The position numbers were made by a program, and so were the translations under genes. This document shows positions 21,692 to 56,284 of a stretch of 64,000 nt of DNA, piece after piece (within the stretch, counting starts at the first letter, position 1; each line of letters starts with the position of its first letter). The notes under the pieces are model-generated. The model had not been told where the DNA came from and did not search any database. It saw only the letters and a list, made by a program, of their open reading frames with translations. Origin of the DNA: Rhodothermales bacterium. Lineage in GTDB: Bacteria; Bacteroidota; Rhodothermia; Rhodothermales; Bin80. The stretch spans positions 656,727 through 720,726 of the forward strand of contig OZ242302.1 in the NCBI GenBank assembly GCA_965208025.1, in the 5' to 3' direction.

Positions 21692-21826
21692 TGGAGTTAA
21701 TGTATGACAGGATGTGAATATAGGAAATTTCTACCTTGATCAACAATTCGCTGAGCCTGAGTATCATTCCTGATGTTGCTAAAGATACTTATTGCTTAGA
21801 CCGAGACCGTGACAACTCCCCGCCCA

Positions 21827-22141
21827 GGTTCTATCACGAATCTAGTGGGAAAAGGTCTAACCATCCGCGGATGAGCAAAACCATGCTTCCCATGTGTTCA
21901 AACCTTTTTCTGTCTGTACCAATCATTTTGAGTTCTTGGATTTTGCCGTTTACTGGTTCTGTGATGGTGTTCAATCGTATAGGCTAGAACGCATTACAGG
22001 CTCTTCAAGATGTAACTGATATATTTCGGCAACCGTGATGACTGTTTTGATGTCCCTCTTTCCAACACGAATTATGTACATTTATACAGATTCCGCTAGT
22101 TCATAAAATGGTTCTCATCCCACACAAATTGTGGTAGAACC
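21827..22141 (+). mobile_element. MITE-like non-autonomous element (about 315 bp) with imperfect terminal inverted repeats
   Basis: The left end ggttctatcacgaatctagtggg matches the reverse complement of the right end (cccacacaaattgtggtagaacc) at 17 of 23 positions by hand alignment. There is no credible internal ORF, and I saw no target-site duplication. Confidence 0.3.
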
Positions 22142-22987
22142 GTTCCTATTCGTGGGAGATAGTCCTCAGCCTATATTCTTCATGAGCTTGTCTTTATTCG
22201 AGGTTAATCCGTCACCAAAAAATTAAGTTTATCTGGTGAATTTGGGATTCTGAGGTCTATCCTTGATCCCAAGATGGTCAAGTAGTATCATTTTCATATC
22301 CAGATAGGATGCGTTGAACGAAATGAGTCGCACTATCTTATGTCGTTGATCAGTATCGTCTAGCTTGACCTGCCATGATCGAGGTCTATCAATGTAGTTC
22401 CAGATACAAAAACCTGTGATTCCCACGCTTAGGATCCAAAATATTCAGAAGGTTTTTTGCATATAACTTACATATATGCTGGGAGTTGATGCAATTCTAT
22501 CATCAAGTGCGGATGGTTCCGCCAGAAATCCTCAATATACCCTTGGATGCGTTTTGAGAACTTCATTGGTATTCAAGACCTGTTCTGATGCCAATGAATC
22601 TCTTCGGTTTTGATTTGGACTGACATTACTCCCCCAGTACTGGTCATAATACACCATGGTATATCTCTATAAATTTTCTCGTACTAGCGTGCACAATGCA
22701 CCGTTTTTGAAAAATAGCCCGGTGTTAGACCATGAAAGAAAAAATGTCCCGCTATATACTTACAGTCATTAAGGATTTTCACTGTCGCAGGAAAGAGTAT
22801 ATTGAACTTGTCACTCACACTTCGTCAATCCAGCCTATCCAGACGCCAACATAATCAGATTCAGAAAAACATGGCCCCCCGACAGGCTTCAGGGAGGAAT
22901 GGGCAAAGTTCCGAAGAGGAAAAATTTTGACAATCCAGATATTTTATAACGGAATGGATGATCAACAAATACTTCAAAGAGGCACTC

Positions 22988-23527
22988 CTATGGAAATAAT
23001 TGCAGGTATACCAAGGTAAGACCGAAAGTAGTAAGTATCGTCGCTACAACCCAACGAATAACTCGGACTTCTGAAGAACTGATCTTACCTTCCACTTGAC
23101 TGACCTTACCTTCCACTTGACTGACCTTACCTTCCACTTGACTGACCTTACCTTCCACTTGACTGATCTTACTATCCAATTGATTGATCTTGTCACTCAG
23201 TTCGCCGTTTAGAGTATGAACTTCAACTTGAGCCTCGCTGATTTTGGTAATCATTTCACCGTGTAAGGTATGAACTTCAACTTGGACCTCGTTGATCTTG
23301 TTATTTAGTTCTCTATTTGCGGTATGAACTTCAGTTTGAATATCACTGATCTTGTCACCTAATTCACAGCGTAATTCGTTAATTTCACTCCGCACAAATT
23401 CTTTCGTTGCAACATCACCATGTTGTTTGTGCAACGTATCAGTTAATACAGATAGGAGCACCTCAGCCTGTTTTGGCTTGAATCCAACCTCCGTAAGATG
23501 ATTAGTTATTGACTGTGGATTAATCAT
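22988..23527 (-). CDS. Tail-anchored coiled-coil protein, DUF1640-like, with heptad tandem repeats
   Basis: 179 aa. The N-terminus (LTEVGFKPKQAEVLLSVL...DVATKEFV) resembles DUF1640. Repeated EVHT-x-coil units are followed by QVEGKVS x4 and a C-terminal TM (WVVATILTTFGLTLVYLQLF). Confidence 0.6.
   Translation of the reverse strand: MINPQSITNHLTEVGFKPKQAEVLLSVLTDTLHKQHGDVATKEFVRSEINELRCELGDKISDIQTEVHTANRELNNKINEVQVEVHTLHGEMITKISEAQVEVHTLNGELSDKINQLDSKISQVEGKVSQVEGKVSQVEGKVSQVEGKISSSEVRVIRWVVATILTTFGLTLVYLQLFP
23081..23185. repeat. 21-bp tandem repeat, 5 units (3 identical, 1 with one mismatch, 1 degenerate), in-frame inside the coiled-coil gene
   Basis: The unit gaccttaccttccacttgact occurs at 23102, 23123 and 23144. 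Flanking variant units are at 23081 and 23165. Confidence 0.9.
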
Positions 23528-23960
23528 TTTAGAGTTTTGTTACGTGAGGTGATACACCTCGGTAATTTTGATATCAGAAATTTCTCTCACTAAGGAGTCT
23601 TCATTGTTAGAGTGAATATCCATTCAGCAGGATTCACTTGCTTATGTTCCCAAATCTCCTCTCCTTTGGTCAAATGGCAAATCTTTTCTCGTAATCAATA
23701 TACTCTGAGTCTTATCGACCTATTTCAGAGCGCATTATAGAATGCCTATCCATGAGATTTAGCATTCAGATTATAGCATCCTCAACATTCAACCAAACTG
23801 GAATCAATGTTATTCTTTCGGTTGATCAACAGTTGTAGGAATAGATTGATCCAATGAGAATAATTGTAGCAAAGGAAGGAAAGGAGTGATACCAGAGAGT
23901 AGCGCATAAATAGATCTATGAAATTTGACATGAAATTGAGTAGGTTTCGTTTGCCGACTA

Positions 23961-23991
23961 ATACTCATTCCCTACTAATTGTGGTAGAACC
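23961..23991 (+). repeat. Solo IS right-end-like repeat (...aattgtggtagaacc)
   Basis: atactcattccctactaattgtggtagaacc shares its terminal roughly 20 nt with the copies at 22110-22141 and 55989-56017. Confidence 0.5.
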
Positions 23992-24658
23992 CCCGTCCAA
24001 AAGTATGGGGACTCCCGATTCTCAGACAGATGCTCTTGATTTCAGTGTCTTACGCTGGTTTCCTCAGGTTTACGGGTTGCCCTACCCCCTGTTCTTAGTC
24101 CGAAAGCAAAATTGCTTTTGGTCTTAACGTCTTCGGTGAACTGCTAGGTTATCGTCAGCCACTACAAAGAAAGATGATTGGGACAATTAGGTTAATATCC
24201 AAGAGTATCGTGAACTCTATTCAATTTACTTATCTGCACCTTATATCCCGCTATAAAGAACAGGGTTTTACGGCGCGTTTGAGAAGATCAGCGATAACCT
24301 GATGTCGAAGATTTTCCCACAGGACCCCACGAACATGGATCATATGGAACGAATGTAATGGATCAGGCTATGTATTAGGGATTATTGATATCCGCCTGCC
24401 GGCTACCTCTGATTAAACTTCGGATATTGTCTGACTTATATTTTCTCTTGTGGATTGCTTATTTCGTAGACTATATGCCGATCCTCGGAAAACTATGGCT
24501 CATATTCTTTGAAATTTATCAACAGAATGACATAAGTTATCCATGCACTGAGCGAATTTGGAGTGCGTTTGACGCTCCCTAAGGAATTCGTAATATCCAA
24601 ATCGGTTTAGTTGTTCGTAGAATTATATTTCTGAGTCACCCTATTTGCATGAGAAAAA

Positions 24659-25534
24659 ATGAATCAACGTAAACCTTTCAAAATTGAAATCTTTTTGTCT
24701 GAGGGAATTCCAAATGGTCTTCGCTTGGTTGAAAAGTCCAGCCGGGATGTCCTTTGCATTGTTTGTCCCCAGGGAAGATACCCTCATGTGAAGAGTAGAG
24801 ACGAATTTTCGAAAAGTGGTGTTTATCTATTAGTTGGACAAGATGGGGATTCGTTACCCAAGCTATATGTTGGAGAGTCAGAAAAGGTTAGGGATCGCCT
24901 CAACTCGCATTATGCTGACAAAGACTTCTGGCAACAGGCGATCATTTTTACGACGAGGGACACTCCACTGAATAAAGCGGAGATCAAGTTTTTAGAGTCA
25001 CGCCTTTTAGAATTGGCAAAGGAATCTGGCCGTTCAAAGCTTGAAAATTCAGGTGAGTCGAAACGGCCGAAACTATCAGAATCGGACGAGGCTGTAATGG
25101 AGGAGTTACTTGATGAATTACTATTACTCCTACCTGTCTTGGGTTTGACTCTATTCCAGCGACCCGAGACACCATCTGATGATAGTAATGTCTATCATCT
25201 AAGTGAAAAGGGATTAGATGCAAGAGGAATTGAGACGGACTCTGGGTTTCTGGTCTTAAAGGGATCGCTTGCACACATAAATGAAAAAGAATCAATGAAA
25301 AAGCATATTCCTAGCTACTATCGTCTGCGTCGGGAATTAATTGATCATCAGACACTTCGTAAAATACCCAACGGATATGAATTTGCCACAGACTGGCTCT
25401 TTGACTCACCCTCGGCCGTAGCAGCAGTCTGCTACGGTGGAAATACTCGTGCCTTCTCCGCTTGGAAAGATTCTACTGGCACATCTCTAAAAGATAATCG
25501 GACACGAGAGGCAGGAAGTAGCGACTCGGATTAG
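24659..25534 (+). CDS. GIY-YIG nuclease domain protein with DUF4357-like C-terminal domain
   Basis: 291 aa. GVYLLVG...LYVGESEKVRDRLNSH matches the GIY-(x)-YIG core. The C-terminal region (GIETDSGFLVLKGS...FDSPSAVAAVCYGGNTRAFSAWK) resembles DUF4357. Confidence 0.65.
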   Translation: MNQRKPFKIEIFLSEGIPNGLRLVEKSSRDVLCIVCPQGRYPHVKSRDEFSKSGVYLLVGQDGDSLPKLYVGESEKVRDRLNSHYADKDFWQQAIIFTTRDTPLNKAEIKFLESRLLELAKESGRSKLENSGESKRPKLSESDEAVMEELLDELLLLLPVLGLTLFQRPETPSDDSNVYHLSEKGLDARGIETDSGFLVLKGSLAHINEKESMKKHIPSYYRLRRELIDHQTLRKIPNGYEFATDWLFDSPSAVAAVCYGGNTRAFSAWKDSTGTSLKDNRTREAGSSDSD

Positions 25535-25622
25535 ACAAAATGAGTTACATTTTCGCACCTATCTCCTACTATGCAAACCATAATACCTAATGAGGGTTTT
25601 TCCGTTATTCGTATATGAAACC

Positions 25623-35323: not shown

Positions 35324-35590
35324 ATGAAACCCCGACGAATCTCCCCCTACTTACTTGCATTGTGTGCTATATTGTTTGCCGGGTGTGGGCCATCGCTCCT
35401 ATCCATGGCAGACTCTTGGAAAGGACTGTCGTGTTGTGGACTCATAATTCTAGTTTTGGACATAATTGCGATTATAGAGATTGCAGGCAGTTCCCGCGAA
35501 ACCGCTTCAAAGCTTATTTGGATCCTGTTTATTATTTTTGCACCAACAATAGGACTCATCGTTTATTACATTTTTGCCAATCGTTCATGA
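35324..35590 (+). CDS. Small PLDc_N-type (cardiolipin synthase N-terminal-like) membrane protein
   Basis: 88 aa with a lipobox-like N-terminus (AILFAGC). ILVLDIIAIIEI...KLIWILFIIFAPTIGLIVYYIF is the PLDc_N two-TM signature. Confidence 0.65.
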   Translation: MKPRRISPYLLALCAILFAGCGPSLLSMADSWKGLSCCGLIILVLDIIAIIEIAGSSRETASKLIWILFIIFAPTIGLIVYYIFANRS

Positions 35591-36828
35591 TGTCTGGAAT
35601 TTCAGTCAGGTGTATGGCACTTGGGATTATCCTCAGATTTACACTTGGTATACCGCCTTGTTATGCGAGTGACGATGAGCCACGCACCGTGATTTTGATC
35701 TCCATTGATGGACTTCGGGCTGATTATTTGACTTCGGAGAACACTCCCAACCTTGTTGAACTGGCTAATCAAGGCGTACGGGCTGAGTATCTCGAGCCAG
35801 TCTTCCCCTCGAAAACTTTCCCAAACCATTACAGCATCATTACAGGACTCTACCCGGCCAACCATGGGATCATAAATAACTCAATGTATGATCCAGATCT
35901 CGGCTTTTTTCGTCTCAGTGACCGAGAGGTACTTTCAAAGACCGCATGGTGGGGAGGAGAACCACTTTGGATTACCGTCCAGAAACATGGTCATACCAGT
36001 GCCACCTATTTTTGGCCTGGCTCCGATGCAGATTCAATCCAGGGATTCCAACCTACTTACTGGATGGAGTATAACCATAGTCTTCCTCATCCGGCCCGGA
36101 TTGATTCAACCGTGGCAGCAATAACTCGTACCCCCCGCCCTGCACTGATCACCACTTATTTTAGCATCGTTGACACCCAAGGACATCGATATGGTCCCGA
36201 TTCTGATGAGATCCGTACTGCTTTGAGAGATGTTGATGCTCAGATTGGTGACTTAATTGCCCGCCTTAAAGAAGCTGGACTCTATGAACACATCAACCTT
36301 GTTGTGCTTGGAGATCATGGAATGGCTGCTACCTCTAAGGATCGGGTCACAATTCTGGACGACTATATTGATCCTGAGGATGTGTGGGTTGTTAGTCTGG
36401 ATGCCATGGGATTTTTGAATGTGAAAGATTCAACCCAGTCAGAGACCTTACTGGATCAACTGAATGAAATGCCCCATGCACGCTGGTTCACCTCTGATTC
36501 AGTTCCAGAGGAGTGGCACTATCGCAATAATGACCGAATCCCCGATTTCGTAGGAATTGCAGATGTGGGATGGCAGATGGCGACACAGTGGAATTATGAT
36601 CGGAATCCCGATTTTTACTCTGGTGGAAACCATGGGTATGATCCTGAACATCCATCCATGCATTCTGCCTTCATTGCTCGCGGACCGCAATTCAAACAGA
36701 ATCTTGTCGTTGAGGGGTTCTCACTCATCCATGTCTATGAACTGTTGTGTGCTGTTCTTCATCTTACCCCCGCAGAAAATGATGGGAACCTTGATGAAAT
36801 TCCCCACCTTCTCCAATTGGCTCCTTAA
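35587..36828 (+). CDS. Ectonucleotide pyrophosphatase/phosphodiesterase (NPP, alkaline-phosphatase superfamily)
   Basis: I trimmed the ORF to MMSGIS (ATGA overlap with the upstream stop). Motifs: ISIDGLRADYL, FPSKTFPNHYSIITGLYP, GDHGM, GNHGYDP. Confidence 0.88.
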   Translation: MMSGISVRCMALGIILRFTLGIPPCYASDDEPRTVILISIDGLRADYLTSENTPNLVELANQGVRAEYLEPVFPSKTFPNHYSIITGLYPANHGIINNSMYDPDLGFFRLSDREVLSKTAWWGGEPLWITVQKHGHTSATYFWPGSDADSIQGFQPTYWMEYNHSLPHPARIDSTVAAITRTPRPALITTYFSIVDTQGHRYGPDSDEIRTALRDVDAQIGDLIARLKEAGLYEHINLVVLGDHGMAATSKDRVTILDDYIDPEDVWVVSLDAMGFLNVKDSTQSETLLDQLNEMPHARWFTSDSVPEEWHYRNNDRIPDFVGIADVGWQMATQWNYDRNPDFYSGGNHGYDPEHPSMHSAFIARGPQFKQNLVVEGFSLIHVYELLCAVLHLTPAENDGNLDEIPHLLQLAP

Positions 36829-37046
36829 AAAACGAATTCATTGAATCCTTGCACCTCATTCAGCCCTGCTTAGGATACCTCCTAAAATAAGTTTGATCTC
36901 TCGCATCTTAATTGTTTTGTAGGCATAGGTACTCCTCAAAATTTGTAAAATGACATGCGACGAATAGGACGATCAGAGAGTTTTGAAAAATACGCCGCGT
37001 ATATTCCCAAACTATGAACTCAAAAAGTCCAATCCTGCTACGGATT

Positions 37047-37092
37047 GGGTGGCTCACATCCCTCGTAATGGGTGGCTCACCTACGTCGTAAT
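37047..37092. repeat. Two tandem 23-bp direct repeats in the island-proximal intergenic region
   Basis: gggtggctcacatccctcgtaat is followed immediately by gggtggctcacctacgtcgtaat, matching at 19 of 23 positions. Confidence 0.8.
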
Positions 37093-37791
37093 ACTCAAAT
37101 TGAGCAAAAACAGTACGTTACCCAATTTTCAGAGAGGCAAAATCTAATTGCGTTTTTATGTCGTGCCGTTGGTTCCCTTGACTCCTTTTCGGCAATACTT
37201 GATAATACGGTCTCATACGTGCTAATTGTTTAGTGAACGGAATTAGCCCAATATGAAATTGCTTTTCCCGTTACACAACATCCGCCTCTATGTCCCTGTC
37301 TGTAGGCTTGGAGCAGGAGTACCAACTGACATTTTCAACAATACCCAAATCTCTATTCTGATCTCTCTCAGAACCCTAATCCAACTTATCCATAACCATG
37401 AGAAAGTCCACTCCAATTATTCCCACCCCCTTTTGTTAGTCACAGGTGTTGAGGGACATTTGGCGAACTTCGAAAGTAATCACTGAGTTTAAGAAAGTCA
37501 AACCCATGATCGTAAAGGGTTTATTGCGTTCGAAGTCACTAAACACGAAAATAGTAGCTCTAAGGAAAAAGCCTCCTGCTTGGACTTACCTGAAAGTGAT
37601 TTTTCGGATCAATTCAAGAAAACATCTTACAACTGTTTTTGTTTTACTAGTGTACTCAGATAACTAACAGCCGAGTCATCGGTGCAGGTGTTGATCTCTA
37701 ACTTTTATATTTTGAGCGACTTCGCCGTCGGGATCGGCGACTCATATGTTCGGAATATGCAATTCTGGTGTGTTTCGGCACCTTTTCCAGA

Positions 37792-38328
37792 TTATTCAGG
37801 AACATCCAAGTTCATTATTTCCAATACCTTGTCCCTCAACTCTATTCCAAATACGCTCTGAACTTTCTCTTTGGTGATCCCATTGTTATAAGCATAACCA
37901 ATGATTGATCTAAGTTCTTCATCGGCGTAGTGCTGATCGTCAATTGCGTACATAAAACAAAATTCTTGAATATTGTAGGCTTCTTTATTTTCAATTTCAA
38001 CTATTTTAGCGGTTTTTTCTGCCCAAGTAGCAGCATTCAGTTCTTTGGATACTTTTTCACCTTTTTCAGTGAGGCGGAGCGGGCTCTCCCCGTCTATGAA
38101 GTCAGGATCTGATCCAGAAAAAATTAAAAAAATGTGTCTGTTGATTTGTCGTATATCCTTTCTTATCTCTTGCATAAATTCTTTGAACGAGTTTCGGTCT
38201 GCATCTACAGCACCCTCCCATCTAGATCTATCTGATATTTTTCTTCCAATGCTACGATGTAGTGTGATCGCACTAATGATTACAGAAGCAATAACTGCTA
38301 TTGCAGTAATCCATTCAGGTGTCATCAT
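37792..38328 (-). CDS. Membrane-anchored protein of unknown function
   Basis: 178 aa, visibly AT-rich gene. It has an N-terminal TM (WITAIAVIASVIISAITL) and a soluble C-terminal domain containing SPLRLTEKGEKVSKEL, a helix-turn-helix-like stretch. I recognise no family. Confidence 0.5.
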   Translation of the reverse strand: MMTPEWITAIAVIASVIISAITLHRSIGRKISDRSRWEGAVDADRNSFKEFMQEIRKDIRQINRHIFLIFSGSDPDFIDGESPLRLTEKGEKVSKELNAATWAEKTAKIVEIENKEAYNIQEFCFMYAIDDQHYADEELRSIIGYAYNNGITKEKVQSVFGIELRDKVLEIMNLDVPE

Positions 38329-38711
38329 AGTTACCAGTTAGTTCAAGTTGATAAAATTGGCTATACTCCTACTATGAATCTACTTTTGACTAAGTAGGAA
38401 ATCTAATCTAGTCATGGATTGGAACTACCGCACAAGGAAAAACGGTTGAATAGCCCGGTTATTTATTGGTATCGTCATTGGTTATGGTCCACAATAGGTA
38501 ACATACTTGCTAACGGGTTAGCTAGTTCCCTCGGCAAGTTTTTCTATTAACATCTTTGCAAAAAGTGTTATCCTTGTAAAGCGTGAACGATAATCCCGCT
38601 AGTAGAGTGGCGGAGATTGGACTCTTTGCCTGCCCCTCCAAGTGATTCAGGAAAAATATGATTAATCCCCCATCCAAAGGCTTGAACACATGGGAGGAAT
38701 TATTCAGATAC

Positions 38712-38756
38712 TTTGAGGATGGTTAGACATTTACCCACAAGGTTCGAGGTAGAACC
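38712..38756 (+). mobile_element. Degenerate ISL3-like right-end remnant
   Basis: ctttgaggatggttagacatttacccacaaggttcgaggtagaacc aligns by eye to 56136-56180 (tctgtggaggtttagacctctatccacaaggttcgtggtagaacc), which is the end of an ISL3-type transposase ORF plus its terminal repeat. Confidence 0.45.
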
Positions 38757-38763
38757 TTATTTT

Positions 38764-39597
38764 TTACGGTGAAGAGTTCACGGAGGCTTTCCTCCGCCTG
38801 TTCAATCTGTGCACGCCCCGAAGAACCAGCACAATGATCTGTCCAATCAATGGAGTTGTGGCCAGGATTTCATTTTCCTCACAGGATAATCCATTTTTCA
38901 GATCATCTACGTTCCATTGCTCAAATTTCTTTCGCCCTGGCCACCCATTACGTGATTTGTGCCAAGGCGTTGTTAAATTCATTGATTCGGAAATATCACA
39001 TGTGCAACCACCAAATCCGCCGATCAGAAACAGAGGCTGCTTAGAGCGAAGGGCCAATAGTGCCTCCTCCGCAATGCCAGGCATGCGCCCTCTATAATCA
39101 GCAACCTGACCGCCTAAGAGTATCCGCGCATCCGTACAAGAATTTTGGAACTCACGCATTGCAGTAAGCCCCGTAATCCATTCGTGTTGATCTGGAAAAC
39201 GCGTCTGAAGTTTTTGACGAGCACCCATGGTCATTGGAGTCCCATCACACTCAAGAAGCTTGATTTCAGCTACATCTTGAAGATCTGTAGCAAGTTCATT
39301 CAGTTGATCAACAGGTGTCCTAATGTGAACAGGCCAAGCCAAATGATTCGTGACTCTTATTAGCTTTCCCAAATCTGCAGAAGATGTGTATCGCAGAACC
39401 AGTTGAAAAAGAATCTGAGTGAATCCATGAGTACGCAGGTCGCCTCCGTAAGCAAGATTCACGTCAGCAGCCAATAGTTGAAGTGCCAGCTCAGCCTTGG
39501 CTTCTTTGAGATGTCCCTCACCAAGACCAAGTGCTGCCATGTCTGGGCTAGAAGATGTTGAAACTGCAACAGTTAGTGGTTTTGAAGAGCTACTCAT
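38764..39597 (-). CDS. LOG/SLOG-like Rossmann-fold protein (putative nucleotide or nucleotide-derived ligand binder)
   Basis: 277 aa from MSSSSKPL. The N-terminal strand-loop-helix VAVSTSSSPD...AKAELALQLLAADVNLAYGGDLRTHGFTQ and the distal GRMPGIAEEALLALRSKQPLFLIGGFGG mirror the two glycine-rich motifs of LOG/SLOG proteins (xYGGGxxG and PGGxGTxEE). This was recognised by eye only. Confidence 0.45.
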   Translation of the reverse strand: MSSSSKPLTVAVSTSSSPDMAALGLGEGHLKEAKAELALQLLAADVNLAYGGDLRTHGFTQILFQLVLRYTSSADLGKLIRVTNHLAWPVHIRTPVDQLNELATDLQDVAEIKLLECDGTPMTMGARQKLQTRFPDQHEWITGLTAMREFQNSCTDARILLGGQVADYRGRMPGIAEEALLALRSKQPLFLIGGFGGCTCDISESMNLTTPWHKSRNGWPGRKKFEQWNVDDLKNGLSCEENEILATTPLIGQIIVLVLRGVHRLNRRRKASVNSSP

Positions 39598-39803
39598 GAA
39601 ACTTCCTCCGCAAGCCACTGGCTCAAACTACGAATTTGCAGATCTTCCCACAGTGTTGCAAAAAGATTGATTTCTTCCTTGCCAAGAGGTGGGTCAGGAT
39701 GTAACAAAACCAAAGGTTTCATAATTTTCCCCAACAGAGTCGCCAACGAAATTAACTCTGGAGAGCGAGACATAAATACTATTTCTGTTGCAGCAATTCC
39801 CAC
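39594..39803 (-). CDS. 69-aa ORF translationally coupled to the SLOG-like gene (GTG start)
   Basis: Its TGA stop overlaps the ATG of the downstream gene (ATGA at 39594-39597). An in-frame stop at 39819-39821 caps the maximum length. I recognise no family. Confidence 0.3.
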   Translation of the reverse strand: MGIAATEIVFMSRSPELISLATLLGKIMKPLVLLHPDPPLGKEEINLFATLWEDLQIRSLSQWLAEEVS

Positions 39804-39825
39804 TAAGTCATTAATTTCTTAAAAT

Positions 39826-41480
39826 TGGGGAATTTCTTTTTTGTTTTCGCAAACGTTTGGCTTATTTTTCGGTCAGACTGTTTTGCTTTAGCCTTGTTTT
39901 GTTGAGAACTTCTCCTGATTGGAGCGTCCATCTTCTTCCTGCCCAGAGATTTGTCTGTGTTTTTCCATAAAACTTGCTGATCAACCATGAAAAAGAAGTC
40001 ACTTCATCAAGCCCCCAAGCGTTTGAGAAAACCGTTTCTGCTTGAAGCTGTCCGGGAGTGTTTTGCCTCCATTGCGGACCCGATTGCGGGGCGGGGCTTC
40101 GTGCTTACGGATTCCCTCATGTCGGGGCTTGCCATCTTTTCGCTCAAGGATTCTTCGTTGCTTCAATTTGATCAAGCGGTGAGGGATGAAGCCCTCCCTG
40201 TCCATCGTAATCTACAAACTCTGTTCGGTGTCGCGCGGGTTCCTTCGGACTCTGGATTGCGGAAGCGTCTGGATGGGTTGGATCCACGAAGTTTGCGGGA
40301 TGCGTTCAAGAGACTGTTTTCCTTGGTGCAACGGGGGAAAGTTCTTGAGGACTACAAGCATATGGACGGGCATCTTCTTCTATCGTTGGACGGAACGGGT
40401 TATTTTTCTTCCAAGACGGTCCATTGTGTACACTGTTGCGAGAAGCATCATCGGGATGGGAGCACGACGTATTATCATCAGATGCTCTGTGGAGCGATTG
40501 TGAGTCCAGATCAAAAGGAAGTGATTCCATTGGCACCGGAGCCGATCTTGAACACGGATGGGGCCAAGAAAAACGATTGTGAGCGAAACGCATCCAAGCG
40601 GTTTATTGAGGATTTCAGGCGGGAGCCCCCGCACTTGAAGGTGATCTTTCTTGAAGATGGGATTGCATCGAATGCCCCGCATATCCGAGAGTTAGAGGCA
40701 AAGAATCTTCGGCGAGGGGCAAAGCCGGGCGATCATAAGTTTTTGTTTCAGGAACTGGAGAGCAAGGCCCAGACATGGGAGACGAAGGAAGACGACGGCA
40801 CCGTTCACCAATTCAGCTATCTCAACCATGTTCCGCTGAACGCATCCAATCCAGATGTAAAGGTGAATCTGCTTGCGTATCATGAGATCAAACCTGGAAC
40901 AAAGAAGCGTCCAACTCCCAAGATGAAACGGTTTTCATGGGTAACGGATTTAGCGCTAACCAAAGACACGCTCATGAAGATAATGCGAGCAGGACGGGCA
41001 AGATGGAGGATTGAGAACGAGACGTTTCACACATTAAAGAACCAAGGCGATCACTTTGAGCATAACTTTGGACATGGTCATCAGTATCTATCCAGCGTGC
41101 TCGGATCCCTGATGCTCCTTGCATTTTTGGTGGATCAGATTGAGATGCGGTGCGATGAATACTTCAGGATCGCTCTGGCGAAGATGACGCGACTCCTGTA
41201 CGTCCGAGAGAGAGTACGGGGAATACTTCGGGAGTTTGTGGTAGAGAGTTGGGATTTTTTGTACAAAGGGATTGCAGAGGGATTCAAGATTACCGTACAA
41301 ATTGATTCATCGTAGCCAAATCAGACCTGAGGGCGGCGAGGCAGCAAAAGTGATTTTAGGTGCCATGGGATAGCTGTCTCCACGCGTGAGCAGATGGGCG
41401 AAACTAGGGACAGCTTGAACCTTAATTGAAGAAAAAACCTGTTTGAGAAAAAGGGAAATGCAATCACGTTACAGAAAACT
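39826..41480 (+). mobile_element. Insertion sequence carrying the 39987-41315 transposase (ends approximate)
   Basis: There is imperfect inverted similarity between about 39833-39885 and about 41420-41475 (atttc..ttttt..caaac..ggt(t)ca(a)g(a)ctg), judged by hand. This segment looks more GC-rich than its flanks. Confidence 0.35.
39987..41315 (+). CDS. DDE transposase (IS4-like superfamily)
   Basis: 442 aa. LLLSLDGTGYFSS, a Cys/His cluster (VHCVHCCEKHHRDG), IFLEDGIASN and RWRIENETFHTLKNQGDHFEHNFGHG form a DDE triad context typical of this transposase group. Confidence 0.85.
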   Translation: MKKKSLHQAPKRLRKPFLLEAVRECFASIADPIAGRGFVLTDSLMSGLAIFSLKDSSLLQFDQAVRDEALPVHRNLQTLFGVARVPSDSGLRKRLDGLDPRSLRDAFKRLFSLVQRGKVLEDYKHMDGHLLLSLDGTGYFSSKTVHCVHCCEKHHRDGSTTYYHQMLCGAIVSPDQKEVIPLAPEPILNTDGAKKNDCERNASKRFIEDFRREPPHLKVIFLEDGIASNAPHIRELEAKNLRRGAKPGDHKFLFQELESKAQTWETKEDDGTVHQFSYLNHVPLNASNPDVKVNLLAYHEIKPGTKKRPTPKMKRFSWVTDLALTKDTLMKIMRAGRARWRIENETFHTLKNQGDHFEHNFGHGHQYLSSVLGSLMLLAFLVDQIEMRCDEYFRIALAKMTRLLYVRERVRGILREFVVESWDFLYKGIAEGFKITVQIDSS

Positions 41481-41571
41481 ACTTCATAAAACCAAATTTG
41501 GTGATTTGAACAGAGTTAGTGGGAGCATCTGTAAAATGAACGGATTTGTGAAATGTTAATATTATGATCTA

Positions 41572-43305
41572 TTGTGTACTTATGTCTACTTTCTGATGAC
41601 TATTTATGCCGAATTCTTCACGTCTCCCACCTACAAAGCCCAAATCTACTATGAAGCCCTCCGTGCCTACTATGTGGAGGGAATCTCTGGAACCGAAGTC
41701 GCCAAGCGGTTTGACATCCCTTATGGCACCTTCAAGAATCTTTGCTATGAGTTTCGCAAATCGCCCAATGCTTTGTTCTTTTGGACTCCTCCCAAATCTG
41801 CTTCCAAGCCCGCTCCTGATTCACTGCGTGCGCGCATCGTGGAGCTCCGAAAAACACACAACGTTTCGATCCATCAAATTCCCTCTCTGCTACGGAAAGA
41901 AGGGCTTGATGCAACCCCGTCTTATATCAGTAAGGTGATCCGTGCGGCAGGGCTTCCACGCCTGCCCACTCGGCCCCCTTCACCTAAACCCGCACAGGCC
42001 ACGCGTGCTGATTGTCGCGCGCTCAACTTATCACCACATAAGTTCTCTACCAGTTTTGGCGGACTTTTTCTCTTCCTGCCAGACTTGGTTAAGATGGAGA
42101 TGGAGTCCTTAGTCCAACATTTGCCAGGATCCAAGTTCATTCCTGCTCCCTGTATGATCCGTTCCTTGTTAGCTCTCAAGCTCTGGGGGATTGGACGACA
42201 TACTCATGTGATGGCAAACACCATGGACGAGGGACTCGCACTCTTTGCCGGACTCAATGGCATTCCAAAACGGTCCACATTAAGCGAATACAGCTCCCGA
42301 TGTGATCCCCACTTCACGCAACCGTTTACCCATGGATGGCTGGATGCCGCTGCGCATCTTGGCGCAGGGCTGGGCCGTGGCACTTCGTTTGATCTAGATT
42401 TTCACACCATCCCCTATCATGGAGACAAAGCACTCTTGGAAAAACACTATATCAGTAAGCGGAGTCGGCGACAATTAGGGGTTTTGACCTTTCTGGCGCG
42501 GGATGCCAACCATCGCGTCTTTTCCTATGCCGATACGACGGTGCACAAAGAGAACCATTCTCTGGCAATCCAGAACTTTGTGGATGACTATGCGCAGCGC
42601 ACGGGTACGAAACCCTCTGAGTTAGTATTTGATAGTGGTGTGACCACCTATGAGCAGTTGGGACGCTTAACGCAGCAGAAGATTCACTTTATTACCTTGC
42701 GCCGCCGTCACAAATCGGTCATGGATGAGATCCAGAATCTCCCCCAAACGCAATGGCGCGCTATCAAGCTGACCAACATAGGACGCAACTATCGGAACCC
42801 AAGTGTCCTGGAGCAGACTGTGAAGCTGAAAGGGTATCCCGACGAGTTACGACAAATTGCCATTCAAGGGCTTGGACACGACCGCATGATTCTCTTGATC
42901 ACCAATCAAATGGAACGGTCCGCTTCCCATTTGATTGATCGCTATGCACGGCGGATGGTCATTGAGAATGTCATCAGCGATACGATTGACTTCTTTCATA
43001 TGGATGCCCTCAGCGCGGCTATTCCGATGAATATTCATGTGGACGTTCAACTCACGGTGATCGCCAGTCTGCTCTACCGAATCCTTGGCCTCCGAGCGAA
43101 TGAGCAGTGGAGCGTAGCTGAAAATCGTACCCTCTATGAATACATAGTTCCCAAACGTGCAACGATCCGATTGACCAAGGATGAGATCATCGTCAAGTAT
43201 CCCCGTCGATCCCACAACCCGTTGCTCATGGGGGCCAATTATCATAAAACAGAGCAACCGATTCCTTGGCTTGATAACAAAATTCTGAAAATTCAGTTCA
43301 CGTGA
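41572..43305 (+). CDS. Second, unrelated DDE-type transposase with N-terminal HTH
   Basis: 577-aa ORF; the start is likely the internal MTIYAEFF. Motifs: HTH GISGTEVAKRFDIPYGTF, FDLDFHTIPYHGD, LVFDSGVTTYEQL, YARRMVIENVISD. Confidence 0.75.
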   Translation: MCTYVYFLMTIYAEFFTSPTYKAQIYYEALRAYYVEGISGTEVAKRFDIPYGTFKNLCYEFRKSPNALFFWTPPKSASKPAPDSLRARIVELRKTHNVSIHQIPSLLRKEGLDATPSYISKVIRAAGLPRLPTRPPSPKPAQATRADCRALNLSPHKFSTSFGGLFLFLPDLVKMEMESLVQHLPGSKFIPAPCMIRSLLALKLWGIGRHTHVMANTMDEGLALFAGLNGIPKRSTLSEYSSRCDPHFTQPFTHGWLDAAAHLGAGLGRGTSFDLDFHTIPYHGDKALLEKHYISKRSRRQLGVLTFLARDANHRVFSYADTTVHKENHSLAIQNFVDDYAQRTGTKPSELVFDSGVTTYEQLGRLTQQKIHFITLRRRHKSVMDEIQNLPQTQWRAIKLTNIGRNYRNPSVLEQTVKLKGYPDELRQIAIQGLGHDRMILLITNQMERSASHLIDRYARRMVIENVISDTIDFFHMDALSAAIPMNIHVDVQLTVIASLLYRILGLRANEQWSVAENRTLYEYIVPKRATIRLTKDEIIVKYPRRSHNPLLMGANYHKTEQPIPWLDNKILKIQFT

Positions 43306-43477
43306 AAAGTCACAGCCATTTTTTCAATGGAAATTCAGGGTAGCCCATTCTTCTGGGTTCGTATCCAGAGCCTCAAACCTACTCCCATCTGTTTTCCTGG
43401 GAGTGTTATACTTGAACAGTCTTTCTCTCTTCACTAACATCTAAATCTGTCTGGCATGTTTCCAAAAACAATTCATT

Positions 43478-45364
43478 TCAAAGCGTTTGGTTAATCATCG
43501 AAAAGCATGTCTCAAAATTATTGAGTGTGTGATCCGAGAATGTGGGTAGGAACTCATTTCGGTGGCGGAGTAACATATCAGCAGGTTTACCATGATGAAA
43601 ATCTCCCCCTTTCTTACGCGCAATACGCTTCACAATCGGATCGTTTCCTTTTAGATTTGATGCCTTCAGTTCCTTTTCAAAAGCTTTATTGTACAGCGCC
43701 AGATAATCTTCCACATCAAATACATCCTCAATATCGCCGAATTGACCATTTAGCACTCGATCAATAGTTATGATCCGCCTTTCCTTTATATGATTTTGTT
43801 TCATAAGTAATTGTAGCTTCTGGTGTCCTTCAGTACGTGAATCTAACAATACTGTAAAATCAAGATTCTTACCTCCGAGTAATGCCACAAAAGTCGGAAC
43901 GAGATCCGCACCACCTACGGGAATTATTGTCCACCGCGAGTTGAGACCTTCTCTATTTATTTCAATCAAATAATCAGACAAGACAGAGAGGTAAGCGTGG
44001 TCCGAGGTGCCCTCCACCACGAGATTGTCTGGACCAATGAACAGGTTTTGGGCCAGGTCGTAGCCGAGTGCTCCCTGTAGCGGAAACAATGTATCACGAT
44101 CTGTGGCCAATATATCCTGTGAAATTATGGCACCTTTGTCTGGACCACAATCCTCAATCACTCGTGCGCGTTCAAGTTTGCCGGGTTGAATCATAAATGG
44201 AGAGTGCGTTGTGTAGATTACTTGGCAACGATTTGCCAATCGGTCATCTATGAATTTCAAGAAGTCAGACTGCGCCCTCGCATGTAATCCAATTCCTGGC
44301 TCATCCAATAGGATAACCACTGGCTTATCACTAGTTTCATACTCCGAGAATGCAGCAAGAAATGAAAAGAACCACTGAAAACCAGAGGAACGTTCTTCAA
44401 ATGGTAATGACAGCATATGCCTATCATCTCGCATCCTAAAGCGCAGTTCTTTGAGACCCTGTTCCTTTGTGATATCAATCTCAACACGAAGTTCGGGATT
44501 GGTTGTCCAATACTTAAGCACCTCTCGGGTGATGCTATTTGCTACATTCTCAAGCTCTCTCTTTCGCTCCTCGTAATCTTCCGCGAGAAGATATTCATTT
44601 TCCGCACCTGCCTGCATTAGCAGTGATTTCGCAGTTCTCTGACTCTCATCAAGTTGATCATCATTTGAATTGAAAAGTTCTTGAATTTTTACCACACCTG
44701 GTAGTTTATTGAACTCAGAGAAATAGAAGAACGCTGGAATTATCTGCTCTAAATTGGACTGGACCAACTGCGAGAAATCTTGATGCTCATTGAGGTAGTC
44801 TTTAATTCTTGAGTTTAACTGCTCAACAACGGATGCCATTGTGGGATCATCTTCTGATCTTTCTGACAAACCATCAACTATTCCTTGCAGGTCCTCAATT
44901 GAATTTGCTCTGCGAACAGCATCATCAATCGAATTGGATATTGACTCCTGATCTATCAGATTGCTTACTACTTTTGACTCTGACACATCATAGCGATAGT
45001 CAATTGTACCATCATACTTTCTACAAACAGTGATTTCGTTGGAAGCAATCACACCATCACCCAGTGTAGAGTGTAGGATGTCTATATCTGAGCCGTCAAG
45101 TGTGAACCATGCGGTTACTGCCTCAACATCATTGATATTAATGTCCTCTCTACGATGTTTTTTTTGAAGCCACGCTGGATAATGTCTAATCGCTTTAAAT
45201 TCTTTGTTACCTTGAGCGGGGTTGAGTCGGTACAGGGCTTTCAGGAAGGCAGTTTTGCCAGACTCATTCTTCCCAACAAGGCAGGTGACGTCGTCTTGAA
45301 TGTCAACTTCGGAAGAATCCAATATATTGCGAAACATTTGAACCTTTACTCGTGTCAGTTTCAT
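43478..45364 (-). CDS. OLD-family nuclease (ABC-type ATPase fused to Toprim)
   Basis: 628 aa. It starts MKLTRVKVQMFRNI, with Walker A VGKNESGKTAFLKAL, Walker B VILLDEPGIGLH, H-loop TTHSPF, and Toprim LVVEGTSDHAYL plus IIPVGGA. Confidence 0.85.
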   Translation of the reverse strand: MKLTRVKVQMFRNILDSSEVDIQDDVTCLVGKNESGKTAFLKALYRLNPAQGNKEFKAIRHYPAWLQKKHRREDININDVEAVTAWFTLDGSDIDILHSTLGDGVIASNEITVCRKYDGTIDYRYDVSESKVVSNLIDQESISNSIDDAVRRANSIEDLQGIVDGLSERSEDDPTMASVVEQLNSRIKDYLNEHQDFSQLVQSNLEQIIPAFFYFSEFNKLPGVVKIQELFNSNDDQLDESQRTAKSLLMQAGAENEYLLAEDYEERKRELENVANSITREVLKYWTTNPELRVEIDITKEQGLKELRFRMRDDRHMLSLPFEERSSGFQWFFSFLAAFSEYETSDKPVVILLDEPGIGLHARAQSDFLKFIDDRLANRCQVIYTTHSPFMIQPGKLERARVIEDCGPDKGAIISQDILATDRDTLFPLQGALGYDLAQNLFIGPDNLVVEGTSDHAYLSVLSDYLIEINREGLNSRWTIIPVGGADLVPTFVALLGGKNLDFTVLLDSRTEGHQKLQLLMKQNHIKERRIITIDRVLNGQFGDIEDVFDVEDYLALYNKAFEKELKASNLKGNDPIVKRIARKKGGDFHHGKPADMLLRHRNEFLPTFSDHTLNNFETCFSMINQTL

Positions 45365-45581
45365 TATGGTGTTTGTTTCTGGAGAGATATGAAGTCTACA
45401 GTTTATTTCACAAGAGTTGAAGTTCTATAACTTGACATTACGCATCCACAGTGAGAGCACTCGCATACATCCGTACCGCTTTTCAAGAAACCATTCTCCG
45501 TGGTTTAATTATCAAGTTGCATTAACAAGTGGATTAAAGTGAAGAAAGCGTTCATCCGATCACATTCATAGTTCAGGATAG

Positions 45582-45620
45582 AAAAAAGGGTATCCCCTAG
45601 GTAAAGGGATACCCTTTTTC
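45582..45620. terminator. Bidirectional rho-independent terminator
   Basis: 9-bp GC-rich stem gggtatccc/gggataccc (45588-45596 / 45606-45614) with a 9-nt loop, flanked by an A-run on the left and a T-run on the right. It lies 22 nt downstream of the 45642 stop. Confidence 0.75.
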
Positions 45621-45641
45621 ATTAAACATTGACGAATGTCT

Positions 45642-55292: not shown

Positions 55293-55766
55293 TCACACAC
55301 ATGGATCAGAAAACGGTAATTGTTTTGGGGGAACCGTGTCGTGATTCGTTTGATTCAATTTAATTCCGTCCGAAGCGTGTCCCATCTCGCATTGATCCCC
55401 TCTTGTTTGAACTTCGTACGCGCCAGATTCCACAAAATAAATCAGCACCATGATGAATAGATGTCCATCAGTGCGTTCGACTTTTCAGTGATAGATCAAT
55501 CGTAATCCCAAATCTGACTTCATGACTCTAAACGCATTCGCAATCTCGGTAAGATGCCAGTAAGTCTGTGCAATCTGGCCAAGGGGTAAGTACGTACGAC
55601 TCGTCGGCAGGATACACCCACCAGTCACGTTTCTCCTATTCTCTGAGGAAGGGCTTCGGGTAAAGGCGGCCGAAGGCACATTCTTGTACCCCGCAGAGGC
55701 GGCTCTACCTTCACTTCGTATGAATGGATACCTGCTTGAACTCTTCCCGCAGACATCCCACCCCAT
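55293..55766 (-). pseudogene. C-terminal remnant of an IS4/IS1634-superfamily DDE transposase with an in-frame stop
   Basis: The translation reads ...QTYWHLTEIANAFRVMKSDLGLRLIYH-stop-KVERTDGHLFIMVLIYFVE..., matching the Y..LW.IE.AFR..KSDL..RPIYH(R/K)..E...H.FI motif block. The TGA interrupts this conserved block and no N-terminal part is present. Confidence 0.5.
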
Positions 55767-56029: not shown

Positions 56030-56180
56030 CAATCCAACGCCAAGGCAGAACGCATTAACGGCAAAATTCAAGAAATCAAAACGGCCGGGAGAGGATACCG
56101 AACGTTTGAAAAATTCAGCAGTGCGATTCTATTCTTCTGTGGAGGTTTAGACCTCTATCCACAAGGTTCGTGGTAGAACC
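56030..56180 (+). pseudogene. ISL3-family transposase C-terminal fragment plus right terminal repeat
   Basis: The translation ...SNAKAERINGKIQEIKTAGRGYRTFEKFSSAILFFCGGLDLYPQGSW-stop is the characteristic ISL3 transposase tail. The stop lies inside the gtggtagaacc end motif (56170-56180). Confidence 0.6.
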
Positions 56181-56284
56181 GTATTTATTATTGGATGCTC
56201 CTCAGAGAAAAGTTAGACAGAATTACAAGTATACCTGCTCCAGATTAGCGGAAGGAAGGAGAACCTTCCTTCCGCTGATCGTCG

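Follow-up and report, generated by a model that had tools for sequence, protein, structure and literature searches.

Positions 36829–45641 of the 64,000-nucleotide stretch of Rhodothermales DNA analysed here (the window) carry genes for a small membrane protein, a SLOG-domain protein, two transposases and an OLD-family nuclease. Is this 8.8-kb region the wreckage of one defence operon, or an assembly of pieces with separate histories? The initial annotation saw an accessory patch with defence-type genes, which holds up, and the patch is non-syntenic. We consider it likely, taking the explanation as a whole, that four accessory pieces, each independent of the others, make up the region as a mosaic, which begins where the NPP gene ends and synteny breaks off. 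The first would be a solitary small membrane-anchored protein from a widespread, uncharacterised family. The second would be a beheaded remnant of an anti-phage signalling module of the TIR-SLOG(-TIR) kind, an arrangement that the literature names type III Thoeris. The third would consist of two DDE transposase genes, unrelated to each other and to all appearances intact, that stand where the TIR gene should run on. The fourth would be an intact, stand-alone OLD-family ATPase-TOPRIM gene, with a strong terminator insulating its upstream side.

The SLOG gene and its missing partner

The gene at 38764–39597 (minus strand) is an intact, stand-alone SLOG cluster-2 gene. Its 277-aa product matches PF18163 (LD_cluster2) over residues 14–233 (E 7.7e-64; 216 bits against a cut-off of 25.3), in agreement with its earlier description as SLOG-like. 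The protein is a 100% match to the 277-aa protein P0001, has 1610 homologues, and retains 55 of the 55 residues that are invariant in the family. The AF2 model (pLDDT 85.5) contains only the SLOG domain and a C-terminal helical extension. The model has the Rossmann-like SLOG fold related to the nucleotide-binding domains of LOG, ThsA and TRPM; Foldseek aligned it, with a probability of ~1.0, to MHR1/2 of TRPM2 (an ADPR-binding SLOG), to the SLOG of BcThsA with 3'cADPR (7uxs) and to LOG (5its, 5zbl). Neither Pfam nor Foldseek revealed a recognisable effector domain in the protein itself.

Next to this gene lies an ORF (39594–39803, minus strand) that had been described as small and coupled. The ORF and its overlap with SLOG are real, its TGA and the SLOG ATG being shared as ATGA, but it is actually the C-terminal remnant of a TIR_2 gene. 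Both tblastn and a profile match identify 39594–39809 (minus strand) as the last ~64 codons of that gene: it corresponds to positions 328–391 of the 392-position profile of the TIR_2 partner (E 7.5e-17), and it matches the C-termini of TIR proteins at loci L001 (E 6e-15) and L002 (E 2e-20). Homology ends at ~39810, and an in-frame stop occupies 39819–39821. The TIR domain sits at about profile positions 182–270, i.e., outside the remnant. Between 36.5 and 46 kb, there is no other part of the partner profile and no ThsB-like match; nor is there a TIR gene in the 64-kb window, the only part of the ~3.7-Mb genome that was searched. Judged by these alignments, the first 83% of the TIR gene is gone, and with it the TIR domain as well as the native promoter region.

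The nature of the intact locus emerges from a survey of 82 SLOG loci from many phyla, in which neighbours within 8 kb of the SLOG gene were examined. By sequence, the conserved partner of the SLOG gene is a TIR_2 protein of ~390 aa encoded immediately upstream. The remnant has a tblastn match directly upstream of SLOG in 69 of the 82 loci, and the profile detects the ~390-aa partner as complete in 57 (50 complete and 7 complete but frame-split). Further, 50 of 51 upstream ORFs of ~390 aa carry a Pfam TIR_2 match. A ThsB-like TIR gene is found downstream of SLOG in about one-third of the 82 loci; a ThsB_TIR match was obtained for 25 of the 33 downstream ORFs tested, including those of the closest relatives of the window (L001, L004, L008 and L017). 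The Klebsiella pneumoniae plasmid pKpnB199 has the arrangement TIR (204 aa) / TIR (397 aa) + SLOG in an independent RefSeq annotation, and TIR-SLOG fusion proteins occur on plasmids of Gloeothece, Priestia and Aureispira.

From these loci, we would picture the intact module as a protein of ~390 aa with a central TIR_2 domain, encoded immediately upstream of a SLOG protein of ~275 aa, the stop codon of the first gene frequently overlapping the start codon of the second; in the closest relatives of the window, a ThsB-like TIR gene of ~200 aa would come next after SLOG. By analogy with Thoeris, we propose that a TIR protein makes an ADP-ribose-derived signal upon infection, and that the SLOG protein may bind that signal and set off a response. 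The putative signal-producing half (the TIR domain and the ThsB-like gene) is missing from the window, and thus the module here, if the analogy holds, has probably lost signalling.

A different reading is that the lone SLOG protein is still functional, either sensing the signal of TIR proteins whose genes lie in other parts of the genome or acting independently of TIR proteins. The full-length ORF and its undiminished set of invariant residues are consistent with this, as are the 9 of 82 loci in which SLOG has no detectable TIR partner; several of these genes sit inside type I R-M operons, and there is one fusion with SLFN_AlbA_2/HATPase_c_4. However, a recent disruption would equally leave an intact ORF, the upstream gene and promoter region have been lost, the window offers no TIR gene, and the protein lacks a recognisable effector domain. 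We therefore regard continued function as unlikely, and a module that has probably fallen silent remains our preferred reading.

Relation to Thoeris systems

The founding type III Thoeris system, P. aeruginosa L0872 with its four TIRs, was reportedly described by van den Berg et al. in 2024, and Yirmiya et al. are said to have renamed the type III effector ThsD in 2025. Type III Thoeris comprises multiple TIR proteins and a SLOG effector, and its signalling is uncharacterised (bioRxiv 10.64898/2025.12.03.692087; PMC13276650). The architecture of the intact relatives of our locus matches that of type III Thoeris, the likeness being one of gene architecture. Those relatives encode a stand-alone SLOG protein with two or more TIR proteins, and the window likewise encodes a SLOG-domain protein. 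In contrast to type III Thoeris, the window has no TIR domain, just the 64-codon C-terminal remnant, and the four TIRs of the L0872 system compare with one to three in the relatives described here. The window SLOG protein is predicted to sense the ligand in a TIR-SLOG(-TIR) module, a role like that of ThsD.

The TIR proteins of the related loci were also compared with TIR1–4 of the L0872 system, for which the queries (TIR domains only) came from the supplement of 10.64898/2025.12.03.692087. TIR4 matches only the upstream TIR_2 family, weakly and in 29 of 51 ORFs (best E 4e-8, 30–37% identity). For TIR2 and TIR3, the matches are also weak (E ~1e-6) and confined to the ThsB-like family downstream, and TIR1 matches additional TIRs in some of the loci. 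The identities of the related-locus TIRs to those of L0872 are low, at 25–43%.

Type I Thoeris, which pairs the SIR2-SLOG protein ThsA with the TIR protein ThsB, also bears comparison. The window SLOG fold resembles that of the BcThsA SLOG with 3'cADPR (target-normalised TM 0.61–0.66 at a Foldseek probability of 1.0), and ThsB_TIR-family genes accompany SLOG in related loci. Unlike ThsA, the window protein has no SIR2 or other effector domain, and its SLOG domain is of another family (PF18163), whose profile finds no ThsA match in the PDB. Further, the main partner of SLOG is the 390-aa multidomain TIR_2 protein immediately upstream.

The transposases and the OLD-family gene

The TIR remnant abuts two transposase genes, which upholds the suggestion that an immune operon was broken at the point that these genes now hold. 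Both encode full-length DDE transposases on the plus strand and, as first proposed, they are unrelated, with no mutual similarity. The gene at 39987–41315 encodes 442 aa with a weak DDE_Tnp_1 match; its plasmid tblastn matches cover 96–99% of the protein, and several of them are annotated as ISNCY transposases. A diverged fragment of this gene lies at 22177–22846 of the window. The gene at 41572–43305 encodes 577 aa (DDE_Tnp_1, E 1.4e-9) and is distantly IS1380-like, its match to the NCBIfam IS1380 model (E 1.3e-11) falling below the cut-off. For neither gene did we find a terminal inverted repeat above the shuffle null, or other copies from which the ends could be defined. Because the element ends and target-site duplications are undefined, what is established is the adjacency of the transposases to the truncation, not that they caused it. 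The missing 5' part of the TIR gene is absent beyond the transposases; we thus infer that more than a simple insertion took place, namely an insertion together with a deletion or rearrangement.

Past the transposases, an intact, solitary gene at 43478–45364 (minus strand) encodes a 628-aa OLD-family protein with an ABC-ATPase and a probable TOPRIM region. Its assignment to the OLD family holds: the AAA_15 match is strong (E 2e-30; 107 bits against a cut-off of 32.1), and PF20469 points to a putative OLD-like TOPRIM region at 18.2–20.3 bits, below the cut-off of 23.2. The protein keeps the Walker A (G31-K-N-E-S-G-K-T38) and Walker B (D354-E355) motifs, which are invariant in its subfamily. In the putative TOPRIM region, the acidic residues E451, D455, D487, D508, D544, E546 and D547 are likewise invariant in the subfamily, some members of which carry a precomputed PF20469 match. 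Full-length homologues number in the thousands, and the protein falls in a large, uncharacterised subfamily of its own, of ~638 aa. At three unrelated loci (L083–L085), homologues with 54–74% identity have no neighbour in common, and nucleotide similarity to the first of these loci is limited to the coding sequence. No partner ORF lies between the stop codon of the OLD gene and the transposase.

Most likely, this is a single-gene, class-1-type OLD nuclease that is independent of SLOG, its class being assigned by context and its predicted function by family membership. Like the class 1 proteins (Old of phage P2; OLD of Thermus scotoductus, 6p74), it has an ABC-type ATPase (AAA_15) at its N-terminus and a TOPRIM-like region at its C-terminus, and its gene stands alone, without a conserved partner at the three homologous loci examined. 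Among PDB entries, 6p74 itself, an OLD-family endonuclease, is the closest relative, and the alignment reaches the TOPRIM region; yet the window protein is very distant from it (E 4e-9 to 7e-11 over ~150–165 residues only).

The gene might instead have outlived its partner in a two-gene system, being a GajA that lacks GajB (Gabija) or a component of PARIS (AriA/AriAB). Both the Old and GajA models of PADLOC match the protein, and its top PADLOC matches include AriA, GajA and AriAB; the GajA models extend over the ATPase and into a portion of the TOPRIM region. AriA structures appear as weak PDB matches, and the transposases lie directly downstream, where a partner could have gone. However, the matching AriA models are essentially a generic AAA_15 ATPase, the AriAB model matches residues 343–459 only (E 2e-11), and the closest structure is that of an OLD-family endonuclease. 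The protein already has a probable TOPRIM region of its own (its PF20469 score being below the cut-off), there is no AriB (DUF4435 TOPRIM) gene in the window, no UvrD-like helicase (GajB) stands beside the window gene, and the homologues in three unrelated contexts have neither neighbour. These observations make a two-gene origin very unlikely and favour the single-gene nuclease.

Borders, minor features and the history of the locus

The patch has a genuine border on its left: two relatives (L087 and L088) stay colinear with the window as far as the stop codon of the NPP gene and no further. From there, an ORF-free spacer runs from 36829 to 37791. The 23-bp tandem repeat noted earlier is present within it at 37046–37092 (2.0 copies and 87% matches by TRF) but is trivial. 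The spacer yielded no Pfam match in any stop-to-stop segment, no Rfam family and no plasmid match. The gene that follows, at 37792–38328 (minus strand), encodes a 178-aa protein whose N-terminal hydrophobic helix agrees with its description as membrane-anchored. It is not the orphan that it was taken for; it has 1182 representative relatives at E≤1e-3 (485 at ≤1e-10) in a widespread, uncharacterised family of ~165–190-aa proteins, in the alignment of which W37, S82-P83 and W102 are conserved. The protein has no Pfam, PADLOC, NCBIfam or PHROG match, and two independent contexts of the family (the near-duplicate contigs L089/L090, and L091) have no partner in common.

An ISL3-end scar had been placed between this gene and SLOG. 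An ISL3 remnant was not confirmed: 38329–38763 shows no remnant of a transposase and no similarity to the real ISL3 elements beside the SLOG genes of L014 and L043, and it has no match in the plasmid collection. What the region holds is a repeated element of ~85 nt (38676–38762, plus strand), directly after the SLOG stop, with a hairpin (AAGGTTCGAGGTAGAACCTT) followed by a T-run; it was detected by blastn self-matches, alignment and a terminator-like scan. The window contains three copies, the others at 21826–21907 (reverse complement) and 56138–56186. At the opposite end of the patch, the strong terminator is confirmed at 45583–45619 (minus strand), between the gene for a T9SS-sorted protein and the OLD gene: a perfect 14-nt inverted repeat that folds into a 17-bp stem (-25.6 kcal/mol, z -5.3) followed by U6. 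The reported shifts in base composition are real but modest. Relative to the window (mean GC 0.456, sd 0.035), the 178-aa gene stands at 0.376 (z -2.3) and both transposase genes at 0.50 (z +1.2 to +1.3).

The initial annotation held that the OLD, SLOG and membrane-protein genes once formed a single minus-strand conflict operon, later split by IS insertions. All of the non-IS genes (OLD, small ORF, SLOG, 178-aa) are indeed on the minus strand, with the transposases in between, and the OLD-subfamily profile did find a single OLD-family gene near SLOG, 292 nt downstream in L035. However, the latter gene shares 4 nt with a UvrD helicase gene and thus belongs to a Gabija-like pair; the pair lies inside a type I R-M locus, and its OLD protein is of a different subfamily, with DUF2813. 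The annotation had set as its own refutation that OLD and SLOG would never stand side by side in IS-free loci; apart from this Gabija-like case, that is essentially what the survey shows. The one-operon proposal is extremely improbable, given that none of the 82 SLOG genes has a relative of the window OLD protein, the 178-aa protein or either transposase within 8 kb, that TIR genes are the conserved partners of SLOG, that homologues of the window OLD subfamily are solitary at the three loci examined, and that the fragment abutting SLOG is the 3' end of a TIR gene and not that of an OLD gene.

IS elements have also disrupted the TIR partner in at least four other loci (L002/L011, L014, L025 and L050). 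These cases allow the speculation, which we hold to be distinctly unlikely, that losing TIR while keeping an intact SLOG gene is a recurrent, selected outcome and not random decay, and that the surviving SLOG retains a function. If this were true, IS elements would repeatedly inactivate the TIR gene, which makes the signal and is costly and self-toxic, both in the window and at these other loci. The surviving SLOG protein might then receive TIR signals made in trans, or bind ADPR-type signals, a parallel to the SLOG genes without TIR that lie inside type I R-M loci.

A SLOG gene beside the stump of a TIR gene

The region between 36829 and 45641 is an ordinary decaying defence patch. Among its contents are what is left of a system of a known kind and an OLD-family gene that is independent of it. 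The remnant includes the SLOG gene (38764-39597, minus strand), whose 277-aa product matches Pfam SLOG cluster 2 (PF18163, E 8e-64). The initial annotation coupled this gene to a small ORF, and both are present: the 69-aa ORF (39594-39803, minus strand) ends in a TGA that overlaps the SLOG ATG as ATGA. The small ORF is, however, the stump of a TIR_2 gene. Its product matches the C-terminal 64-67 residues of TIR_2 proteins (50% identity, E 6e-15 to 2e-20) and corresponds to positions 328-391 of A2, the 392-position profile of the ~390-aa TIR_2 partner family in which the TIR domain occupies ~182-270 (E 7.5e-17). Homology to TIR proteins ends at ~39810, and an in-frame stop comes next (39819-39821).

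In a profile search of every frame of 36.5-46 kb, the rest of the TIR profile had no match and no ThsB-like sequence appeared; tblastn likewise found no further TIR or ThsB-like sequence in the 64-kb window. Because these searches recover only the C-terminal remnant, we conclude that the TIR domain, the N-terminal domain, the native promoter region and the downstream TIR gene are gone. Two transposase genes abut the truncation, which does not prove that they caused it. Since the missing 5' part of the TIR gene is absent beyond them, we infer an event other than simple insertion.

The TIR–SLOG module in relatives

The SLOG protein has 1610 homologues in a protein search. We surveyed 82 loci with SLOG cluster-2 genes: two retrieved with gene calls, and 80 from a one-genome-per-species scan, distributed over Rhodothermales, Gemmatimonadota, Acidobacteriota, Latescibacterota, Binatia, Dehalococcoidia, Proteobacteria and Nitrosopumilaceae archaea. 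The two loci with gene calls display the operon TIR_2 (368 aa)–SLOG–ThsB_TIR (201 aa), and in a Rhodothermales MAG the upstream gene of the same operon is shortened to 126 aa beside a DDE transposase. By tblastn, the match to the window's 69-aa ORF adjoins SLOG on its upstream side in 69 of the 82 loci. Pfam TIR_2 lies in the middle third of 50 of 51 upstream ORFs of ~390 aa; A2 is fully covered in 50 of the 82 loci and complete but frameshift-split in seven more. Of 33 downstream ORFs of ~200 aa that were tested, 25 are ThsB_TIR, those of the window's closest relatives (L001, L004, L008, L017) among them. The RefSeq annotation of the K. pneumoniae plasmid pKpnB199 (TIR / TIR + SLOG) offers independent support. 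Among more distant homologues, single TIR–SLOG fusion proteins occur on Gloeothece, Priestia and Aureispira plasmids, which speaks for the two domains being functionally linked. The core module pairs a TIR_2 gene with the SLOG cluster-2 gene that follows it immediately and often overlaps it; to these are added ThsB-like TIR extras that vary in number. This core is found in at least ten bacterial phyla and in Nitrosopumilaceae archaea.

Several of these loci merit separate mention. The module's presence in two Nitrosopumilaceae archaeal MAGs (L032 and L061; SLOG 49-51% identical) implies transfer between domains of life. On pKpnB199, a conjugative IncFIB/IncHI1B clinical plasmid (L092; NZ_MK552108.1 104916-115686), the module is flanked on each side by a pair of ISNCY-family transposase and HTH genes, an arrangement that looks like a composite-transposon-style cassette. 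Further, the SLOG cluster-2 module is often nested within type I R-M loci, with or without a TIR partner: HsdM is upstream in L035 and L043, and HsdR downstream in L036 and L044; nesting in L067 is judged solely from a downstream ORF sized like the HsdR ORFs. L044 also encodes a 765-aa ORF in which SLFN_AlbA_2 and HATPase_c_4 are fused to SLOG cluster 2.

The window is not the sole case of a damaged TIR gene. The TIR partner is also cut or interrupted beside a transposase in L002/L011 (DDE_Tnp_1), L014 (ISL3), L025 (DUF772 + DDE_Tnp_1) and L050 (DUF4372 + DDE_Tnp_1). The L025 case is a single 659-aa ORF (L025:5579-7555) in which TIR_2 (aa 181-300) and an IS5-type transposase are joined in frame; here the IS is caught within the TIR gene, whose 3' remnant lies downstream together with an intact SLOG gene. 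Such repeated loss fits counter-selection of a costly gene, and it could equally reflect the richness of these islands in IS.

The OLD-family gene and the rest of the region

The OLD gene, the SLOG gene and a 178-aa membrane protein had been proposed to form one minus-strand operon split by IS insertions. The survey contradicts this proposal: none of the 82 SLOG genes has a relative (E<1e-4) of the window's OLD protein, 178-aa protein or either transposase less than 8 kb away, and their partners are TIR genes. A profile of the OLD subfamily detects a single OLD-family gene near SLOG, in L035 (AAA_15 + DUF2813 + OLD_TOPRIM), where it and a lone SLOG gene sit between hsdM and hsdS. Because that OLD gene overlaps a UvrD-helicase gene by 4 nt, we regard the two as a Gabija-like pair; its place beside SLOG is defence-island co-location, not partnership.

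The OLD-family identity of the 628-aa ORF (43478-45364, minus strand) was assigned correctly. Its product matches AAA_15 (E 2e-30), with OLD-like_TOPRIM below threshold, and its best solved relative is an OLD-family endonuclease (6p74). The Walker motifs and TOPRIM acidic residues are intact. The protein is one of a very large subfamily whose members have ~638 aa; homologues of 54-74% identity in three unrelated contexts have no neighbour in common, and nucleotide similarity to the closest is confined to the coding sequence. PADLOC models match the OLD-like protein only (generic AriA/AAA_15, Old, GajA). PARIS and Gabija readings of the gene were considered and rejected, because the partner genes are lacking.

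The 178-aa protein (37792-38328, minus strand), formerly considered an orphan, has 1182 representative relatives and conserved motifs. Neither it nor the 69-aa product has a match in Pfam, PADLOC, NCBIfam or PHROGs, and the former has none in phages or plasmids. A metagenome scan for its family gave three loci only; two of these are near-duplicates, and the contexts have no neighbour in common. The 435-bp gap between its ORF and the SLOG gene (38329-38763) does not appear to be the ISL3-end scar it was taken for: its six-frame pieces have no Pfam match, it is unlike the ISL3 elements in L014 and L043, and it has no plasmid match. The gap contains one of three copies of an ~85-nt element (38676-38762; 21826-21907, reverse complement; 56138-56186) with a conserved hairpin (AAGGTTCG.GGTAGAACC) and a T-run. 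All three copies are sited either at the border of an accessory-looking patch or beside a gene end. The element has no similarity to ISL3 elements and could be a REP/MITE-like or terminator element.

Both transposases, IS-A (39987-41315) and IS-B (41572-43305), are encoded on the plus strand and match DDE_Tnp_1 without mutual similarity; they are unrelated, as first described. Over 96-99% of its length, IS-A resembles plasmid proteins that carry an ISNCY-family transposase annotation. IS-B is weakly IS1380-like and has no plasmid match, and viral contigs scanned with both gave zero matches. Local alignments of left against right flanks in search of IS ends, for IS-A, IS-B and the two together, scored as the shuffle null. 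Kinship of IS-A to the Klebsiella "ISNCY" transposases flanking TIR-SLOG was considered and rejected, there being no Klebsiella among the organisms listed for its plasmid matches. A second accessory patch (21700-25550) holds a diverged IS-A-like fragment (22177-22846, 65% nucleotide identity to 40265-40980), a CCDC90-like coiled-coil protein (22988-23527) that has a hydrophobic stretch near its C-terminus, and a protein of GIY-YIG/DUF4357 type (24659-25534; phrog_12629, E 4e-60). A transposase remnant at 55428-55586 (minus strand) shares 44% identity with residues 417-470 of a DDE transposase from the Rhodothermales MAG locus L002, the one that truncates the TIR gene there.

ORF listing, composition and repeat scans uphold most of the original inventory. 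The left flank is the NPP gene, with its stop at 36828, and the right flank is the gene for a T9SS-sorted protein, with its stop at 45642. An ORF-free spacer of 963 bp (36829-37791) has the reported 23-bp tandem repeat in two copies (37046-37092, 87% matches), and Pfam, Rfam and plasmid searches with it gave zero matches. The strong terminator is likewise present (45583-45619; 17-bp stem, -25.6 kcal/mol, z -5.3 relative to shuffled sequence, then U6). The shift in base composition is visible but only modest, with GC rising from 0.376 in the 178-aa gene (z -2.3) to 0.50 in the transposases (z about +1.3); the mean over the window is 0.456 (sd 0.035). Two relatives, whose NPP proteins are 83% and 72% identical to the window's, are colinear with it from ~25.6 kb to the NPP stop; the next 10 kb of each has nothing in common with 36.85-64 kb of the window. 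Because colinearity ends there, the left border is real. The mechanically listed 488-aa NPP ORF within 35324-36828 probably has 412 aa, as does the database protein P0241. Upstream of NPP lies a separate gene for an 88-aa PLDc_N-type membrane protein (35324-35590), likewise in the relative L087.

Relation to Thoeris systems

Modelled with AF2 (pLDDT 85.5), the SLOG protein matches the ADP-ribose-binding SLOG of TRPM2, the ThsA SLOG bound to 3'cADPR, and LOG enzymes. By analogy, these matches and the TIR partners support a Thoeris-like scheme in which the TIR proteins would make an ADPR-derived signal and SLOG would sense it. In the literature (bioRxiv 10.64898/2025.12.03.692087; PMC13276650), type III Thoeris comprises several TIR proteins and a SLOG effector, with signalling uncharacterised. 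The TIR–SLOG relatives have the same architecture, and their module is a candidate member of type III Thoeris. Comparison with the founding system of P. aeruginosa L0872, whose SLOG effector is ThsD, covered its TIR-domain sequences (supplement, 10.64898/2025.12.03.692087); these match the two partner families in a position-specific but weak manner.

Because the window is without a TIR gene, loss of signalling is the most likely state of its module. Less probably, the lone intact SLOG gene may keep some role, given that a profile search detects no TIR partner in nine of the 82 SLOG loci.

The window reveals no new mechanism, and its value is mainly corrective: a SLOG gene with a coupled small ORF is what is left of a TIR–SLOG signalling module, and genes that share a strand within a defence island need not form an operon. 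Some context for type III-like Thoeris comes from the survey, and the recurrent interruption of the TIR gene by IS is consistent with a fitness cost of that gene, or merely with IS-rich islands.
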